Below, in pieces: positions 48,779 to 56,119 of a stretch of DNA of 64,000 bases (position 1 is the first letter of the stretch; each line of letters starts with the position of its first letter). Below the pieces are notes generated by a model that was not told where the DNA came from, made no database searches, and saw only the letters and a program-made list of their open reading frames with translations. The DNA comes from an uncultured Rhodospirillaceae bacterium. GTDB taxonomy: Bacteria > Pseudomonadota > Alphaproteobacteria > MPNO01 > UBA2964. The stretch covers positions 21,534 to 85,533 of the forward strand of contig CAZBKQ010000007.1 of NCBI GenBank assembly GCA_964492555.1, read 5' to 3'. Both the position numbers and the translations under genes were made by a program.

Positions 48779-48830
48779 AAATTTTCTTTTGAATGGTTCC
48801 AATCTGAAAAGGATTGCTTATATAGGAACC

Positions 48831-49250
48831 ATGAACGACAGACCCTATTCACGCATCATTGCGATATTGCAGAAGGCCGGGCTTCGCCCGACCCGCCAGC
48901 GCATGGCCCTTGGCCGGCTTCTGTTCGAATCCGGCGACCGGCATGTGACCGCCGAAGATGTTCACGCCGAAGCCGTCGCCGTCGGTGTAAAGGTGTCCCT
49001 GGGCACGGTTTACAACACCTTGCACCAGTTCACCGATGCCGGGCTGGTCCGGGAGGTCGTGGTTGAACCGGGCAAGACCTATTTCGATACCAATACCTCG
49101 TCCCATCATCATTTCTTTTTTGAAGATAGCGGCGTTATCCGCGATATTCCGGCGGAAGAGGTTGCGATTGAGCGCCTGCCCGAACTGCCCGATGGGGTTT
49201 CGCTTTCGCGCGTCGATGTGGTCGTCCGCGTTACCGGAGACGAAGGCTGA
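48831..49250 (+). CDS. irr: Fur-family iron response regulator (Irr-like), Cys-less with an HHH motif.
   Basis: ORF 48696..49250. Start refined to MNDRPYSRIIAIL. SSHHHFFFED matches the HHH motif described for rhizobial Irr. The irr-adjacent-to-fabABI order is recalled from Rhizobiales. Confidence 0.68.
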   Translation: MNDRPYSRIIAILQKAGLRPTRQRMALGRLLFESGDRHVTAEDVHAEAVAVGVKVSLGTVYNTLHQFTDAGLVREVVVEPGKTYFDTNTSSHHHFFFEDSGVIRDIPAEEVAIERLPELPDGVSLSRVDVVVRVTGDEG

Positions 49251-49264
49251 GCGGGGATTTTAAT

Positions 49265-49279
49265 TTATAATCATTGTAA
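49265..49279. promoter_or_regulatory. PerR/Fur-box-like palindrome TTATAATCATTGTAA upstream of the rubrerythrin gene.
   Basis: It matches TTATAATnATTATAA at 14 of 15 positions. It lies in a 190 bp AT-rich spacer about 170 nt upstream of the rubrerythrin start. Coordinates are +/-2 nt. Confidence 0.35.
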
Positions 49280-49444
49280 AGAATTGTGTATAGGATTGAT
49301 TTCATGAAAAGTTCACTTGAATAATTTATGGGTTTTCCTATATAAGAGGAATGTTGGCGCCACAATGGGGCCGGCGTCGCCCGAACGGGCACAATACAAG
49401 CCATCCGTCCGGATGGCGGCCAGAAGAAGGTAAAGGAGACACCG

Positions 49445-49861
49445 ATGGCAGGACTTAAGGGGACCAAGACCGAAAACAATCTCAAGGAAGCGTTTGCCGG
49501 CGAATCGCAGGCCAACCGCCGTTATCTTTATTTCGCGCAGAAAGCCGACGTCGAAGGCTATAACGATGTCGCCGCCGTATTCCGTTCCACCGCGGAAGGC
49601 GAAACCGGCCACGCGCACGGCCATCTCGAATATCTTGAGGAAGTCGGCGATCCGGCGACCGGGGAACCGATCGGCGATACCGCCAGCAACCTGAAGGCGT
49701 CGGTCGCGGGGGAAACCCACGAATACACCGACATGTATCCGGGCATGGCGAAGGAAGCCCGTGAAGAAGGGTTCGACGAAATCGCGACCTGGTTTGAGAC
49801 CCTCGCCAAGGCGGAACGTTCCCATGCGGGCCGCTTTCAGAAGGCTCTCGACGAGCTTTAA
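49445..49861 (+). CDS. Rubrerythrin-family (erythrin-like) diiron protein without a rubredoxin domain.
   Basis: Two ExxH diiron motifs ([16 protein letters not shown] and the ExxH at SHAGRFQ), ferritin-like four-helix pattern; 138 aa. Confidence 0.85.
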
Positions 49862-49966
49862 TCATCCCGCGGCAGCGTGGCGCGAAACTTTCGCGCTACG
49901 CCCGCATTTTTCAAAGGATTTATCGATTCAGACAGGGCCCCGCGCCCTGAACAGTGGAGCCGTGCC

Positions 49967-51319
49967 ATGAGTGAAGGAAGCCTTGAAGCGCCGATCCGTC
50001 ACCCGATCGACTGGAATAATCCCGATTTTTACGATGAGGCAAAACTCGATGCGGAGCTTCGGCGGGTATTCGATATCTGTCACGGCTGCCGGCGCTGCTT
50101 CAATCTCTGTGATTCCTTCCCGCGCCTGTTCGATCTGATCGACGATTCGGAAACCGGTGAGCTGGACTCGGTCGATTCCTCGGGTTTCAAACCCGTCGTC
50201 GATGCCTGCACCCTGTGCGACATGTGTTTCATGACAAAATGTCCCTACGTGCCGCCGCATGAATTCAATCTCGATTTTCCGCACCTCATGCTGCGGTACC
50301 GCGCGGTGGAAAAGAAAAAGGGCGAAGTGCCGTTCGTCCAGAAACAGGTTTCCGAAACCGACCGCAACGGCAAGCTGGCCGGCGCCGTCGCGCCGCTTTC
50401 CAACTGGGCGACGCAAACCGGCAACGGGCTGACCCGGCCCCTGATGCAGGGCGTTGCGGGGATCGATGCCCGTGCCGAGTTGCCGAAATTCCACGGCAAG
50501 ACCTTTACCGCCCGCGCCAAAACCGACATTCCCAAAATCAACACGGACGCACCGGGCCATGGCCGCAAGGCGGTTATCTATTCGACCTGTTTTGTTAATT
50601 ACAATAATCCCCAGATCGGCGCCGCCGCGCGGGGCGTTCTGGCGAAGAACGGGGTCGAGACAGAGGTCGCCCATCCGCGTTGCTGCGGCATGCCGAAGCT
50701 GGAACATGGCGATATCGAAGCGGTCGCCGAAAACGCCAGGGCCGTGGCGGCGGAACTGCTGCCCTGGGTGGATAAGGGATATGACGTCATCGCGCTGGTG
50801 CCGTCCTGCGCCCTGATGCTGAAATTCGAATGGCCGCTGATCCTGCCGAAAAATGACGACGTCAAACGGCTGGCGGAGGCGACCAGCGATATCACCGAAT
50901 ATGTCGTCGATATCGCAAAGAACGAGGGGCTGGCAGAAGGGCTGCAACCAATCGATGGCGGCGTCGCGGTTCATCTCGCCTGTCACGCGCGGGCGCAGAA
51001 TATCGGACCGAAGGCGGCTGAAATGTTACGCAATCTGCCCGATACCCGTGTCGCGGTGATCGAACGCTGCTCCGGTCATGGCGGGTCCTGGGGCATGATG
51101 AAGGACAATTTCGACACCGCGATGATGGTCGGCAAGCCGGTGGCGAAGCAGGCGGTACAGGGCGGTCAGGCCGCCGTTGTTTCGGAATGTCCGCTCGCCG
51201 GTCTGCATATCCTGCAGGGTATGCAGGATGTCGCCGAGGGTGACGAAAAGGCGAAGATTCCCGAAACCGCGCCGCACCCGATCGAAATCATGGCCCGCGC
51301 TTACGGGATCGAGGTCTGA
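49967..51319 (+). CDS. (Fe-S)-binding protein with two 4Fe-4S ferredoxin motifs and CCG (cysteine-rich) domains (HdrD/GlpC/LutA-like).
   Basis: ORF 49877..51319. Start refined to MSEGSLEAP after a GGAG RBS. Motifs CHGCRRCFNLCDSFP and CTLCDMCFMTKCPYVPP, then CCGMP-containing CCG domains. Confidence 0.8.
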   Translation: MSEGSLEAPIRHPIDWNNPDFYDEAKLDAELRRVFDICHGCRRCFNLCDSFPRLFDLIDDSETGELDSVDSSGFKPVVDACTLCDMCFMTKCPYVPPHEFNLDFPHLMLRYRAVEKKKGEVPFVQKQVSETDRNGKLAGAVAPLSNWATQTGNGLTRPLMQGVAGIDARAELPKFHGKTFTARAKTDIPKINTDAPGHGRKAVIYSTCFVNYNNPQIGAAARGVLAKNGVETEVAHPRCCGMPKLEHGDIEAVAENARAVAAELLPWVDKGYDVIALVPSCALMLKFEWPLILPKNDDVKRLAEATSDITEYVVDIAKNEGLAEGLQPIDGGVAVHLACHARAQNIGPKAAEMLRNLPDTRVAVIERCSGHGGSWGMMKDNFDTAMMVGKPVAKQAVQGGQAAVVSECPLAGLHILQGMQDVAEGDEKAKIPETAPHPIEIMARAYGIEV

Positions 51320-51342
51320 AAATAGCCGCCAAGGAGAATTCG

Positions 51343-51930
51343 ATGGCTAAAACCGAACTTACCCGGGACGATCTGATGGCGCCGGAGGCTTACGCCGCCG
51401 AACGCCGCGCGCACGCGCAGCGCATTTCCGCCGTCAAGGCGGATCGCCGTGTCGCGGTCGGCCCCGACGCGACCTTCTATTTCGAAAGCTGGGACACGAT
51501 GTGGTTTCAGGTGCATGAAATGCTGCACATCGAAAAAGGCGGTGAGGAACAGATCGCCGATGAGCTCGCCGCCTATAACCCGCTGATCCCCAACGGGCGT
51601 GAACTGACCGCGACCATGATGATCGAAATCCCCGATCCCGGCCGCCGCCACAAGGTGCTGGCCGGCCTTGGCGGAATTGAGGAAACCGTCGTCATGATCG
51701 TCAATGGCGAGGAAATCCGTGGCAAGGCTGAAGAAGATGTCGACCGCACCAATGCCGCCGGCAAAGCGTCTTCGGTCCAGTTCATTCATTTCCCCTTTAC
51801 CGACGCGCAGGTCGCGGCCTTCCGCGCCGACGGGGCGGATGTGCGGATTTCCATCGAACACCCCAATTACCGTCACACTGCGGGGCTGACGGAAACCGCG
51901 CGCGCCGCTCTTGCATCGGATTTCAGTTGA
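51343..51930 (+). CDS. DUF3501-family protein.
   Basis: 195 aa. It is tightly linked downstream of the rubrerythrin and CCG Fe-S genes. The family call is from memory of this conserved triad. Confidence 0.55.
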   Translation: MAKTELTRDDLMAPEAYAAERRAHAQRISAVKADRRVAVGPDATFYFESWDTMWFQVHEMLHIEKGGEEQIADELAAYNPLIPNGRELTATMMIEIPDPGRRHKVLAGLGGIEETVVMIVNGEEIRGKAEEDVDRTNAAGKASSVQFIHFPFTDAQVAAFRADGADVRISIEHPNYRHTAGLTETARAALASDFS

Positions 51931-51966: not shown

Positions 51967-52028
51967 CCTGTTTCATTTGTGCGTTGCCAACGCGCAACAC
52001 GCTGGGGAAGCGAAACAAATGAAACAGG
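51967..52028 (+). promoter_or_regulatory. 62 nt stem-loop with a 13 bp perfect inverted repeat (CCTGTTTCATTTG...CAAATGAAACAGG) in the tctC 5' leader.
   Basis: Seen directly. The 3' arm ends about 5 nt before the AGGGAAGG RBS of the 52039 start. An inner GTTGC...GCAAC sub-hairpin is present. Confidence 0.4.
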
Positions 52029-52038
52029 GAAGGTAAAA

Positions 52039-53076
52039 ATGGGACTTAAACAAAGCGCCTTGCTGGCCGCGTCCATCGGGATGGCGGCGGCATCATTGTC
52101 GGGTACCGCCGCCAAAGCGGATGCGGTTGCCGATTTCTACAAGGGAAAAACAGTTACCATCGTCGTCGCCGCGCGGGCCGGCGGCGGCCATCATAAATGG
52201 TCGCTGTTCCTGTCGCCGTTCTGGGAAAAATACATGCCCGGAAAGCCCAACTTCATCACCCAGAATATGGGCGGTGCCGGCGGGACCAAGGCGGCGAACT
52301 ATCTCTATAATCGCGCCGCGCAGGACGGCACCGTGATCGGCATCCTTCTGCAGGATACGCCTTTTGCCGCGCGGCTGCGTTCGACGGGAATCAAATACGA
52401 TCCGCAAAAATTCCAGTTTATCGGCGGCGCTGAACGGCCGCAGCCGGCTTTTATCGCCTTGAAGGAAGCGGGCGTGAAAACGCTGGAGGACGTCAAGAAA
52501 AAGCAAGTCATTATCGGCTCCACCGGCAAGGGGTCGCAGACTTTTATCCTGCCGAAACTCGCCAATGGCATGATCGGCACGAAGTTCAAGATCGTGCTCG
52601 GCTATCGCGGCATGGCGGGGATTTACAAGGCCTTGGACAGCAAGGAAGTTTATGCGTTCCAGGCGGGTTATTCCTCGATTGAACTTATCCGGCCGCATTG
52701 GGTCGAGGAAAAAAGGATCGAGGTTCTGGCGGTCAATTCGCTGAAACCGTTGCCCGGTTGGGAGCATAAGAAGCTGTTCAAGGATTACGTCACCGACCCG
52801 ACCGATAAAAAGATCGTCGAGCTGATCGCCGGGAATGACATTATCGGCCGGGCCTGGCTGGCTCCTCCGGGCATGCCGAAAGCGCGGGTCGATGCGATGC
52901 GCGCGGCCTTCAAGAAAATATTCAGCGACAAGGACGCGCTGGCCGCGGCCAAGAAGCGCAAGATGGATATCGGCTATGTGGAGTGGGAATTGCAACAGGC
53001 CCACGCGAAAAACCTGTCCACCGCGCATGACGGGTTGTTTGACAGAATGCGCAAGCTGATGTCTTTAAAGAACTGA
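52039..53076 (+). CDS. tctC: Tripartite tricarboxylate transporter substrate-binding protein (TctC/Bug family).
   Basis: ORF 51961..53076. Start refined to MGLKQSALLAASIGMAAASLSGTAAKA (signal peptide). Bug-family periplasmic binding fold. Confidence 0.8.
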   Translation: MGLKQSALLAASIGMAAASLSGTAAKADAVADFYKGKTVTIVVAARAGGGHHKWSLFLSPFWEKYMPGKPNFITQNMGGAGGTKAANYLYNRAAQDGTVIGILLQDTPFAARLRSTGIKYDPQKFQFIGGAERPQPAFIALKEAGVKTLEDVKKKQVIIGSTGKGSQTFILPKLANGMIGTKFKIVLGYRGMAGIYKALDSKEVYAFQAGYSSIELIRPHWVEEKRIEVLAVNSLKPLPGWEHKKLFKDYVTDPTDKKIVELIAGNDIIGRAWLAPPGMPKARVDAMRAAFKKIFSDKDALAAAKKRKMDIGYVEWELQQAHAKNLSTAHDGLFDRMRKLMSLKN

Positions 53077-53210: not shown

Positions 53211-53741
53211 CTATTTGAAGGTCTCATCCTTATAGACGCCCCAGATTTCGGCGCGTTTGATCCAGCCATCGAAACCTGAAAATGCCGCCTGGCACCAGAT
53301 ACCGCGGCAGGTTTCCAGCCGTCCGATATTCTTTTTCGCAATCCTGGCGATGACGCCGGCATTGGGCCGCGGGTCGCGCCGCAGCAATATCTGGTTATCA
53401 GGGACGATCACCCAGCGTTTGCCCGACAGGAGCGAGCGGTGGACCCAACCGGTGGATCCCTGCCAGTCGCGGATCTTGCGCCAGGTATCGAACTCATCCA
53501 GTACCTCTACCGGCATGTTGCGGTAGGTCAGCACCCACTCGACAGGATAGCGCGTGCCGGGGCCGGTCCTCAGATTGACCTTCCCGGAGCGAAGAGAGAC
53601 GAAGCGCGGAATCTCCAGCCCGGTGACCTTACCGGTCTTTTGCGCGCCGGCGGGGCTTTGCGGTGCCGATCCGGCAATCAGCAAAATGGCCAGCGCAATA
53701 GCATGCCAAGGAAAGCGCGAATTTTGAAATATGGTTTTCAT
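53211..53741 (-). CDS. Secreted bacterial SH3-domain protein (SH3b/DUF1058-like).
   Basis: Signal peptide (MKTIFQNSRFPWHAIALAILLIAGSA) and an SH3-like motif (VNLRTGPGTRYPVEWVLTYRNMPVEVLDEFDTWRKIRDWQGSTGWVH). Confidence 0.6.
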   Translation of the reverse strand: MKTIFQNSRFPWHAIALAILLIAGSAPQSPAGAQKTGKVTGLEIPRFVSLRSGKVNLRTGPGTRYPVEWVLTYRNMPVEVLDEFDTWRKIRDWQGSTGWVHRSLLSGKRWVIVPDNQILLRRDPRPNAGVIARIAKKNIGRLETCRGIWCQAAFSGFDGWIKRAEIWGVYKDETFK

Positions 53742-53874
53742 GCCAGCCCGAAATCCCTAAAACGCCCGCCTATTATAGGGCGCGCCTCTGGACGGCTCCA
53801 GTTCCGATGGGCATGATTACCGCGCGTTCGTCAGAAGGCGCATTAAAGTCGCAAAAGCGGGACAGGGATCGCCC

Positions 53875-54861
53875 TTGATGAAAAAACCGGTTGTCGTCGT
53901 TACACACAAGCTTCCCGCGGTCATCGAAGTGCGGATGAAGGAACTGTTCGACGCCCATCTCAACGCGGCGGATACACCGATGCCGGCGGATGAGATTATT
54001 GCCGCCTGCGACGGCGCCGATGTGCTGGTGCCGACCGTTACCGACAGCATCGACGCGGATCTGATCGGAAAGCTACCGGACAGTGTTCGGCTGATCGCCA
54101 ATTTCGGCGTCGGCATCAATCACATTGATTGCGCCGCCGCCGATGCGCGCGGCATCACGGTCACCAATACGCCCGGGGTGCTGACCGACGACACGGCGGA
54201 TCTGACCATCGCGCTGCTGGTGTCCGTACCTCGCCGACTGGTCGAAGGCGCGCAGCTGGCCCGCGCCGGTGGATGGAAAGGTTGGCGCCCCACCTTCATG
54301 CTCGGGCACCGGGTCAACGGCAAACGTCTCGGTATTGTCGGGATGGGACGGATCGGTCAGGCGGTGGCAAAACGCGCCCGCGGGTTCGATATTCAGGTCC
54401 ATTATCACAACCGCAACCGGGTTCATCAGGCAATCGAGGAAGAGCTGGAGGCGACCTGGTGGGAAAGCCTCGATGAGATGCTCGAACATGTCGATCTGCT
54501 GTCGATCCATTGTCCCCTGACGCCGGATACGACCAACCTGATGAGCGCGGAACGGCTCGACCGGTTGCCGCCCCATGCGGTGATCGTCAATACCGCGCGC
54601 GGCGGTATCATCGATGAAGACGCACTGGCCGAAAGGCTGGCTTCCGGTCGGCTCGCCGGGGCGGGGCTGGATGTTTATGCCAACGAACCGGAAATTCACC
54701 CCAAGCTGCTGGAGCTCGACAATGTCGTTGCCGTGCCGCATCTCGGCTCCGCCACCCATGAAGGACGCGTCGCGATGGGCGAAAAGGTGGTGATGAATGT
54801 CAAGGCATTCGCCGATGGCCACGCTTTGCCCGACCGGGTGCTGATCGGTGTGGATGTATAG
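53875..54861 (+). CDS. D-isomer-specific 2-hydroxyacid dehydrogenase (glyoxylate/hydroxypyruvate reductase-like).
   Basis: NAD-binding GxGxxG (LGIVGMGRIGQAVAKR) and the catalytic R/E/H triad region (IVNTARGGIID...VPHLGSAT). Confidence 0.85.
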   Translation: MMKKPVVVVTHKLPAVIEVRMKELFDAHLNAADTPMPADEIIAACDGADVLVPTVTDSIDADLIGKLPDSVRLIANFGVGINHIDCAAADARGITVTNTPGVLTDDTADLTIALLVSVPRRLVEGAQLARAGGWKGWRPTFMLGHRVNGKRLGIVGMGRIGQAVAKRARGFDIQVHYHNRNRVHQAIEEELEATWWESLDEMLEHVDLLSIHCPLTPDTTNLMSAERLDRLPPHAVIVNTARGGIIDEDALAERLASGRLAGAGLDVYANEPEIHPKLLELDNVVAVPHLGSATHEGRVAMGEKVVMNVKAFADGHALPDRVLIGVDV

Positions 54862-54939: not shown

Positions 54940-55320
54940 CTAGATAAAAACAATCTGCGCGTTGTCGCGTTCCGCTTCGGCGAGAAAGCTCACCATGCCG
55001 CCGGGTGTGGCCGCGATGTCGGGCCTCAGATCATCCATCATCAGCCCCTCGGATTTAAGCCCGGCGTCGCAAATCTGAAAATCCGCTTCGAATTCCGCGC
55101 AGGCGGCGATCATTTCCGCCAGCGTCGCGATGCCTTTTTCCGCATTCGCGGAATCGTTTGCCCTGCCCCAACCCGGCGTGAGCGCATGGATCGCGCCCAT
55201 GGTGAAGAATAACGTGACCGGCCGGTCCGTGGCGGTCGCGGCGGCGGCCATTACGAAACCGTAATGAATGCGGCCGTAATCGGCGGAATGCAGGATCAGG
55301 GACAGGCGGCGCTTTGCCAT
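54940..55320 (-). CDS. DsrE/DsrF-like family small protein.
   Basis: 126 aa with two Cys (AACAEF, QICDAG). Its start overlaps the stop of the upstream MoeB-like gene. Confidence 0.5.
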   Translation of the reverse strand: MAKRRLSLILHSADYGRIHYGFVMAAAATATDRPVTLFFTMGAIHALTPGWGRANDSANAEKGIATLAEMIAACAEFEADFQICDAGLKSEGLMMDDLRPDIAATPGGMVSFLAEAERDNAQIVFI

Positions 55321-55321
55321 G

Positions 55322-56119
55322 TCAGGCGCCCGCGTGGGCGGAAAGATCGGTTATGGCGGGGTGGTCGCCGCATAGCGCGCATGCCGGATCGCGCTTCAGT
55401 CCGATCTTGCGAAAGGTCGTTTCCAACGCATCATAGAGCAGGAGGCTCCCGGCCAGGGTTTCGCCGACCCCCATGATTTCCTTGAGAATTTCGGTTGCCT
55501 GCAACGCGCCCATCACACCGGCGAGCGCGCCCAGCACGCCGCCTTCCGAACAGCTCGGCACCATCCCGTCGGGTGGCGCCTCGCGATAGAGACAACGGTA
55601 ACAAGGGAAATCCGGCCCGAGATGCGATTTGAAGGTGGCGATCTGCCCCTCGAACCGCAGGATGGCGGCGGAGACCAGCGTGCGCCCGGTCAGATGGGCG
55701 GCATCGGCGACCAGAAACCGCGTGGCGAAATTATCCGATCCGTCGGCGACGATATCGTAATCGGCCATCAGCGCGGCGGCGTTTGCCGCGTTCAACCTTG
55801 TGTGATGCGGCACGATTTTTACGTCCGGATTGATATCGCTCACCACGTTTGCGGCGCTGTCCACCTTTGGCGTGCCGATGCGCGACGTGCCGTGAATGAC
55901 CTGGCGCTGCAAATTGGAAAGATCGACCACATCATCATCGACTACCCCGATGGTGCCGACACCGGCGGCGGCCAGATAAAGCAGCATCGGTGCGCCCAGC
56001 CCGCCCGCGCCGACCACCAGCACCTTCGCGCCCAGCAGTTTTTCCTGCCCCACCCCGCCCACTTCGGGCAGCACGATATGGCGCGCATAGCGGTGAAGCT
56101 GTTCCTCGGTGAAATCCAT
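55322..56119 (-). CDS. moeB: ThiF/MoeB/HesA-family E1-like adenylyltransferase (probable MoeB).
   Basis: Nucleotide-binding GAGGLG, both CxxC Zn motifs (CYRC, CALC) and no rhodanese domain; 265 aa. Confidence 0.8.
   Translation of the reverse strand: MDFTEEQLHRYARHIVLPEVGGVGQEKLLGAKVLVVGAGGLGAPMLLYLAAAGVGTIGVVDDDVVDLSNLQRQVIHGTSRIGTPKVDSAANVVSDINPDVKIVPHHTRLNAANAAALMADYDIVADGSDNFATRFLVADAAHLTGRTLVSAAILRFEGQIATFKSHLGPDFPCYRCLYREAPPDGMVPSCSEGGVLGALAGVMGALQATEILKEIMGVGETLAGSLLLYDALETTFRKIGLKRDPACALCGDHPAITDLSAHAGA

Follow-up and report, generated by a model that had tools for sequence, protein, structure and literature searches.

A window of 64,000 nucleotides (nt) from an uncultured marine Rhodospirillaceae-like alphaproteobacterium (contig CAZBKQ010000007.1, positions 21,534 to 85,533) was found to carry three consecutive genes for an aerobic-type rubrerythrin, an Fe-S protein and a DUF3501 protein. 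The first (49445–49861) encodes a rubredoxin-less rubrerythrin of the ferriperoxin/sulerythrin type, here called RBR, which comprises 138 amino acids (aa) and matches Pfam Rubrerythrin (PF02915, E 1e-29) over residues 11–134. The second (49967–51319) encodes the 450-aa Fe-S protein RFO, with a match to Pfam CCG (PF02754, E 3e-12), and the third (51343–51930) the 195-aa DUF3501 protein (PF12007, E 3e-62). These matches bear out the positions assigned to the three genes in the initial annotation of this DNA, all of them on the forward strand. Directly upstream of RBR, on the same strand, lies irr (48840–49250), which encodes a Fur-family iron response regulator of the IrrA type (NCBIfam IrrA, 208.8 bits against a cutoff of 150; Pfam FUR, E 1e-22); its start was placed at 48831, earlier by 9 nt, by gene callers. 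No match was returned when the 64-kb window was scanned for Rfam families and tRNAs.

When delimited mechanically, the open reading frame of RFO begins at a GTG at 49877. The true start is almost certainly the ATG at 49967, because a GGAG is situated 7 nt 5′ of it, every RFO homologue has an N terminus of the form M-x-EGSLEAP and gene callers predicted a protein of 450 aa on identical metagenome contigs. A start at this position leaves a 105-nt intergenic spacer between RBR and RFO, within which a hairpin described below therefore falls. The gap between RFO and DUF3501 is 23 nt in the window, with a median of 27 nt among relatives.

Conservation of the RBR-RFO-DUF3501 operon

The three genes represent an instance of the published aerobic-type rubrerythrin system. 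The aerobic-type rubrerythrin lineage was defined by Cardenas, Quatrini and Holmes (2016; PMC5114695), who also gave the Fe-S partner the name RFO. The families, the gene order and the rubredoxin-less RBR of the published system (PMC5114695, PMC7050145) are all as found here and nothing essential differs; the triad is not an unrecognised entity, its naming and analysis dating from 2016. The initial annotation proposed an analysis of co-occurrence and fusions, which had likewise been published already: the triple of RBR, RFO and DUF3501 was found in 185 of 4461 genomes, with near-exclusive co-occurrence, and DUF3501-RFO fusions are present in Nitrosomonas (PMC5114695). All three proteins are furthermore mitochondrially targeted in protists, Andalucia among them, and are of alphaproteobacterial origin (Gray et al., 2020; PMC7050145). 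The linkage to irr and to an Irr-box-like site in the present host is not discussed in either study, and this linkage is added here together with a hairpin conserved in structure, a motif-based case against disulfide chemistry and an argument for an adaptor role of DUF3501.

To place the window among its relatives, a scan with one genome per species was used, which gave 80 loci with DUF3501 proteins 58–75% identical to that of the window, and gene order was mapped by tblastn; counts for the irr-RBR and RBR-RFO spacers cover 73 related loci. The 80 loci include members of the Rhodospirillales, Kiloniellales, Fodinicurvata, Pelagibius, Thalassospiraceae and Elsteraceae. The order RBR-RFO-DUF3501 was kept in all 80 as far as the contigs extend, and irr(+)-RBR(+)-RFO(+)-DUF3501(+) was present in every locus long enough (~70 for irr), persisting even where fabA-fabB-fabI sits flipped on the other strand. 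The nearest genome by DUF3501 is a Rhodospirillaceae metagenome-assembled genome (75% identity), and an identical DUF3501 protein was found on marine and estuarine metagenome contigs with the same synteny.

Further afield, RBR-RFO-DUF3501 was also found with other flanks and without irr in Burkholderia cenocepacia (L085) and in two distant metagenomic lineages whose DUF3501 proteins are 35–38% identical. On one metagenomic contig (L086, DUF3501 35% identical) RFO and DUF3501 overlap by 4 nt, while in a low-GC alphaproteobacterium, a distant lineage, the triad is located between type VI secretion system genes and aspS. A plasmid search returned only Burkholderia chromids, which were unannotated. 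Chance is far from explaining such an arrangement, and the three genes form a real conserved operon, in agreement with the initial annotation, which had taken the three genes for one conserved module. As the same order recurs across Rhodospirillales/Kiloniellales-type loci, Burkholderia and distant lineages with differing flanks, the triad moves as an autonomous unit.

The three proteins have not diverged to the same extent. RBR is 84–98% identical within the clade and still 82% identical to the protein of B. cenocepacia (L085 3081–3494), with RFO and DUF3501 only ~45% identical in that species. It should also be noted that the 138-aa RBR shows unusually strong constraint compared with its operon partners.

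Cofactor ligands and predicted structures

The diiron ligands of RBR are complete (E20, E53, H56, E90, E93, E124 and H127; five Glu and two His, with two ExxH motifs). No C-terminal Fe(Cys)4 rubredoxin domain was found in the protein, which contains no Cys at all, and electrons for RBR would therefore have to come from outside. It shares the diiron four-helix bundle and the peroxidase chemistry of the classical rubrerythrin of Desulfovibrio vulgaris but differs from it in lacking the rubredoxin domain; the score against NCBIfam Rbr (140 bits) is below the cutoff of 200, and a Ferritin-like Pfam domain is additionally matched. Alignment with the rubrerythrin of Burkholderia pseudomallei (BpRbr; 4di0, 9onm) was near-identical and spanned the whole protein (E 3e-71), and sulerythrin (1j30) was matched with E 4e-52. 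Structures of both BpRbr and the sulerythrin of Sulfolobus tokodaii have been solved, and the solved relatives are domain-swapped dimers, not cages.

Ferriperoxin and sulerythrin are, like the RBR of the window, single-domain diiron erythrins with an identical ligand set, and they have been characterised biochemically with peroxidase activity. The ferriperoxin of Hydrogenobacter thermophilus (Fpx) reduces both H2O2 and organic hydroperoxides in an NADPH/FNR-dependent manner and is indispensable for aerobic growth, with the mutant being sensitive to reactive oxygen species and failing to grow in air (PMC3317640). The peroxide reduction suggested in the initial annotation thus falls to a family for which hydroperoxide reductase activity has been demonstrated. 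The ferriperoxin assay differs in its partners, which were FNR and NADPH and not RFO and DUF3501, and the RFO gene is unlinked in H. thermophilus. For BpRbr, a 2025 preprint reports promiscuous binding of several metals, and the operon partners are still only hypothesised there to be electron donors.

RFO contains exactly 15 Cys residues, all of which are conserved as far as Burkholderia. Two ferredoxin-type motifs are clear from their Cys residues (C38-x2-C41-x2-C44-x3-C48 and C81-x2-C84-x2-C87-x4-C92-P), with a weak Pfam match below the cutoff (Fer4_9, E 0.006). The first CCG domain has C208, C239, C240 and C281 only, and the second has C339, C368 (followed by S369, giving CSG for CCG) and C408. 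Of the two 4Fe-4S motifs and the CCG domains named in the initial annotation, the former were therefore recovered, as was the first CCG domain; the second scored below the Pfam cutoff. The motif CXnCCGXmCXXC, which with five Cys per domain binds the two catalytic, noncubane [4Fe-4S] clusters in HdrB, is incomplete in both domains of RFO, neither of which contains a CXXC, so that seven Cys ligands are present against ten. Four His residues (336, 340, 371 and 414) are invariant.

Comparison with related families gave scores below cutoff for NCBIfam GlpC (190.8 bits against 278, and 123.2 against 279.9) and likewise for LdhH and GlcF. Neither glpA nor glpB is present in the neighbourhood, and no HdrA, HdrE, DsrC or lipoate-binding partner was found near RFO, which is surrounded by irr, RBR and DUF3501 as well as by genes for a solute-binding-like protein and an SH3 protein. 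No membrane segment was detected in RFO, as there is no hydrophobic stretch outside the CCG core and the N terminus is the ferredoxin domain. A search of the Protein Data Bank with the single RFO sequence returned nothing, and a profile returned only insignificant ferredoxin-like matches (best E 0.02). An AlphaFold2 model, built from a comparatively shallow alignment (pLDDT 83, pTM 0.86), was matched by Foldseek to LutA (E 2e-7), to EtfD (PDB 9ojn; E 5e-7 over 413 columns, query-normalised TM-score 0.53) and to HdrB chains (E 2e-6 to 1e-4, target-normalised TM-score ~0.6). The comparison with EtfD and HdrB is one of fold and not of aligned residues, no residue-level alignment having been obtained.

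EtfD, HdrD/HdrBC, GlpC and LutA share with RFO a soluble module of two ferredoxin-type [4Fe-4S] motifs and two CCG domains. The EtfD of Mycobacterium smegmatis is a non-catalytic wire from ETF to menaquinone, with fully coordinated clusters that work in air; one of its CCG domains, in which the CC pair is changed to CT, contains a linear [3Fe-4S] cluster, with the other containing a noncubane [4Fe-4S] cluster completed by a His (PMC13083937). RFO resembles EtfD cluster D1 in the loss of the second Cys of one CC pair but lacks the N-terminal five-helix membrane cytochrome b domain of EtfD. It also has fewer CCG Cys ligands (4 + 3) than EtfD or HdrB, and its partners are RBR and DUF3501, as against ETF, HdrA/E or GlpAB for EtfD, Hdr and GlpC. 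Since RFO is without the full HdrB Cys set, has a CC-to-CS change and invariant His residues and is predicted to have an EtfD-like fold, an electron wire is favoured over disulfide reduction. The disulfide reduction which the initial annotation had offered as an alternative is thereby weakened, and on its motifs and model RFO is more likely an electron wire than a disulfide reductase.

The DUF3501 protein is composed of a helical N-terminal part and a β-sandwich. It contains no Cys and no cofactor motif, and acidic and aromatic side chains predominate among its conserved residues (R21, F47, E48, E59, E64, E74, Y78, P83, E95, E113, H173 and Y176). Its fold is near-unique, with a match to the structural-genomics structure 3fjv, which comes from the B. 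pseudomallei Rbr operon. Because no cofactor motif is present, and because DUF3501 accompanies RBR alone in Thermoproteales and forms fusions with RFO in Nitrosomonas, DUF3501 is most economically read as more likely a docking adaptor between RBR and its reductase. Longer DUF3501 proteins of 240–320 aa, obtained in a search of representatives, were considered as possible informative fusions and were set aside, as they contained no extra Pfam domain.

Regulatory sequences and flanking genes

The spacers around irr were searched with the Irr-box (ICE) consensus TTTAGAA-N3-TTCTAAA, a match being defined as three mismatches or fewer, and 249 random 200-nt pieces were used as a control. Only two ICE-like sites were present in the whole 64-kb window, both flanking irr. 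One of these is TTTATAATCATTGTAAA (49264–49280, forward strand), with two mismatches at core positions, located between irr and RBR. The irr-RBR spacers of the related loci contained a box at this same place in 67 of 73 cases, 56 of them with two mismatches or fewer (none in 5, one in 20, two in 31, and three in a further 11), as opposed to 0 of the 249 random pieces. In most relatives the box is followed after ~3 nt by TTGAC (−35) and ~17 nt further by a CATAT-like −10 region. As the box abuts the −35 region in these loci, the geometry fits occlusion of the promoter by Irr.

In the clade of the window, which includes loci L005–L007, the TTGAC after the box has been lost. The best promoter-like element of the operon, as read from the sequence, is TTGAAT-N16-TATATA (49317–49344, forward strand), which is conserved in L005–L007, the closest relatives, and to which a simple consensus scan gave no score. 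The locus agrees with the alphaproteobacterial Irr/ICE regulon (Rudolph, 2006; Rodionov et al., 2006; PMC1698941) in having an IrrA regulator, and a box at the rubrerythrin promoter is clear in its relatives, but the box in the clade of the window is degenerate and displaced upstream of a different −35/−10 pair. Control of the RBR operon by Irr is well supported across the family by these predicted sites, while its strength and sign at the locus of the window are uncertain. The most informative context of the triad, namely the adjacent irr together with the Irr-box-like site, had been omitted from the initial annotation.

The second site, TTTTGAATGGTTCCAAT (48787–48803, forward strand), is weak, with three mismatches, and lies in the fabI-irr spacer, which is 50–60 nt long. 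An ICE-like site upstream of irr was found in 14 of the 73 related loci, approximately a fifth, and in 0 of the 249 random pieces, which suggests possible autoregulation of irr. Within the predicted RBR leader of ~100 nt there is also a small palindrome, GCCATCCGTCCGGATGGC (49400–49417, forward strand), without an Rfam match, and further conserved GC blocks were seen in an alignment of the clade.

The predicted minimal Irr regulon of Rhodospirillum, Magnetospirillum and Pelagibacter consists of a rubrerythrin-like gene or CcpA, the latter being a di-haem peroxidase (Rodionov et al., 2006; PMC1698941). The pairing of rubrerythrin and CcpA as alternative minimal targets favours a peroxidase role for RBR. 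The possibility that the system of the window corresponds to Bradyrhizobium blr7895, an Irr-repressed 'rubrerythrin-like' gene, was rejected, as blr7895 is MbfA, an erythrin-VIT1 iron exporter. Neither Burkholderia nor the low-GC alphaproteobacterial locus, where irr is not beside the module, was found to have an Irr box 5′ of RBR, and Irr control would therefore be lineage-specific. In B. cenocepacia an ECF-type sigma factor with a DUF6596 domain (L085 1334–2791) is encoded ahead of the module, with a run of ~nine GACGCAC heptamers in the spacer (L085 ~2815–2880), from which it is expected that the module is regulated differently outside the alphaproteobacteria that contain Irr.

Between RBR and RFO there is a hairpin (49875–49901, forward strand) with a 12-bp stem, eight G-C pairs and a 3-nt loop, followed by CCGCATTTTT, which may act as a terminator-like or mRNA-stabilising element. 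The initial annotation had described an imperfect GCGCGA...TCGCGC hairpin at this place, and the structure proved to be better than described. The spacer folds with z = −3.7 against shuffled sequences, and the hairpin occurs once in the 64-kb window, so that a dispersed repeat was rejected. Among relatives, a GC-rich hairpin in the RBR-RFO spacer beats all 20 shuffles in 57 of 73 loci (median z −4.4). These hairpins follow the RBR stop codon, are unrelated in sequence and in general have no U-tract; what is conserved is thus the structure of the hairpin, not its sequence. A simple consensus scan found no promoter-like site in the RBR-RFO spacer. It is suspected that the hairpin is a partial terminator or a 3′-end stabiliser, with RBR being made in excess over RFO and DUF3501.

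Downstream of the triad, a perfect 14-nt inverted repeat (CCTGTTTCATTTGT / ACAAATGAAACAGG, arms 34 nt apart, 51967–52028, fold z −3.0) lies directly 5′ of the ribosome-binding site of a gene for a protein of 345 aa (52039–53076). This protein had no Pfam or NCBIfam match beyond a sub-threshold one to NMT1_3, which hints at a solute-binding protein, and its gene sits between DUF3501 and the SH3 gene only in the organism of the window, with relatives lacking this gene there. It is followed at 53211–54861 by genes for an SH3_4-domain protein (reverse strand) and a D-2-hydroxyacid dehydrogenase (forward strand). This pair is found 3′ of the triad in ~60 of the 80 related loci and is absent beside the module in Burkholderia and the distant lineages; the linkage is probably inherited synteny and not a functional link. 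Further on, at 54940–56119 on the reverse strand, the gene for a ThiF/MoeB-type adenylyltransferase (265 aa) is followed, only 1 nt downstream, by that for a DsrE-like protein (126 aa), and the two may be a sulfur-carrier or sulfur-transfer pair. On identical metagenome contigs the DsrE/ThiF pair is followed by dUTPase and CoaBC genes.

Proposed function of the module

The triad is probably a cytoplasmic hydroperoxide-detoxifying module tied to Irr, in which RFO feeds electrons to RBR via DUF3501, and we infer a single electron-transfer chain made up of all three. In such a chain RBR, a domain-swapped diiron four-helix bundle, would convert H2O2 and organic hydroperoxides into water or alcohol at its diiron site. 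Its dedicated electron wire would be RFO, by means of two cubane [4Fe-4S] clusters and one or two variant clusters in the CCG domains, and DUF3501 would act as a non-redox adaptor docking RBR onto RFO. As candidates for the ultimate donor, the quinol pool, a thiol or a flavoprotein (for example ETF or FNR) may be named. With 2 Fe per RBR and an estimated 11–16 Fe, roughly, per RFO, the module would be expensive in iron, and its expression would be tied to iron or haem status through the adjacent Irr and the Irr box of the promoter. The hairpin after RBR would allow RBR to accumulate above RFO and DUF3501. In line with what the initial annotation had said of the donor and of DUF3501, no definition of the physiological electron donor, of the role of DUF3501 or of the biochemical function of RFO was found in the literature consulted, which extends to 2026.

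A number of observations weigh against this scheme. RBR and DUF3501 occur without RFO in 25 genomes, including those of Thermoproteales, and RFO is thus not universally needed (PMC5114695). Ferriperoxin was reduced by FNR in vitro without RFO or DUF3501 (PMC3317640), and no experiment in the literature ties either of these two proteins to RBR activity. With regard to regulation, the Irr box of the window has two mismatches in its core and lies ~45 nt upstream of the best −35 region, and expression of the rbr gene of SAR11 rises slightly (1.57-fold) when iron is limiting, at odds with a simple repression in low iron.

Somewhat doubtfully, RFO may further be proposed to be an EtfD-like, air-stable wire without a membrane anchor, in which the reduced Cys set (4 + 3), with invariant His residues close by, would form variant clusters that are non-catalytic and possibly linear [3Fe-4S]. 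RFO and DUF3501 would then link quinol or an ETF-like flavoprotein to RBR, and the system would be a functional counterpart of the periplasmic CcpA. If true, the module would be a cytoplasmic hydroperoxide (or O2) reductase fed by the respiratory chain and inherited by early mitochondria.

A role in iron handling is unlikely, though it has several observations in its favour. RBR would here be a ferroxidase or a small iron-buffering ferritin-like protein, with RFO and DUF3501 reducing and releasing its iron as Bfd does for bacterioferritin, and the module as a whole would serve iron homeostasis under the control of Irr. The match of RBR to the Ferritin-like domain and the metal promiscuity of BpRbr are consistent with this, as are the known targets of Irr, which are mostly genes of iron storage or export such as bfr and mbfA; in SAR11, which has no ferritin, rbr, with its annotation of hypothetical ferroxidase, is the sole target predicted for Irr. 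The domain-swapped dimers of the solved relatives, however, have no storage cavity, all seven peroxidase-type ligands are conserved in RBR, and the alternative minimal Irr target, CcpA, is also a peroxidase. The enzymology of ferriperoxin is likewise that of a peroxidase, as is indicated also by the phenotype of its mutant. RFO could on the other hand be a true HdrD-like disulfide reductase or thiol oxidase, through which a thiol/disulfide pair, either of low molecular weight or in a protein, would feed peroxide or O2 reduction at RBR. The presence of the CCG domain with its HdrB-like fold and the source annotations of the protein as 'heterodisulfide reductase-related' point in this direction. 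This too is unlikely, slightly more so than iron handling, given that both CXXC motifs are absent, the second CCG reads CSG, only 7 of 10 Cys ligands are present and the Hdr-type partners are missing from the neighbourhood; EtfD, among the closest solved full-length relatives, moreover uses the module without disulfide chemistry.

It is also conceivable, if improbable, that RFO is the reductase of a diiron terminal oxidase (alternative-oxidase-like) or of an oxygenase or hydroxylase, the triad having an O2-dependent function. The distribution is limited to aerobes and mitochondria, and relatives of RFO, EtfD among them, connect to quinone pools, as GlpC also does. Sulerythrin serves as a model of how O2 is activated by a diiron site (PMC12851003). 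The activity measured for an orthologue is nevertheless that of a peroxidase, and no substrate-related gene was seen to be conserved beside the module across lineages. That the three genes are neighbours without a common function is very improbable. The terminator-like hairpin, the 105-nt gap between RBR and RFO and the reduction of ferriperoxin by FNR alone would agree with it, but the gene order is kept across alpha- and betaproteobacteria with unrelated flanks, co-occurrence is near-exclusive, fusions exist, and the spacer yielded no promoter-like site in the scan.

As the triad has already been published, the window provides context rather than discovery. Among aerobic bacteria and archaea the module is widespread, and several lineages of protists have it in their mitochondria. 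To establish which electron donor it uses and what DUF3501 does would fill a real gap in the physiology of oxidative stress, and could bring to light a further use of CCG-type Fe-S clusters, which are unusual.

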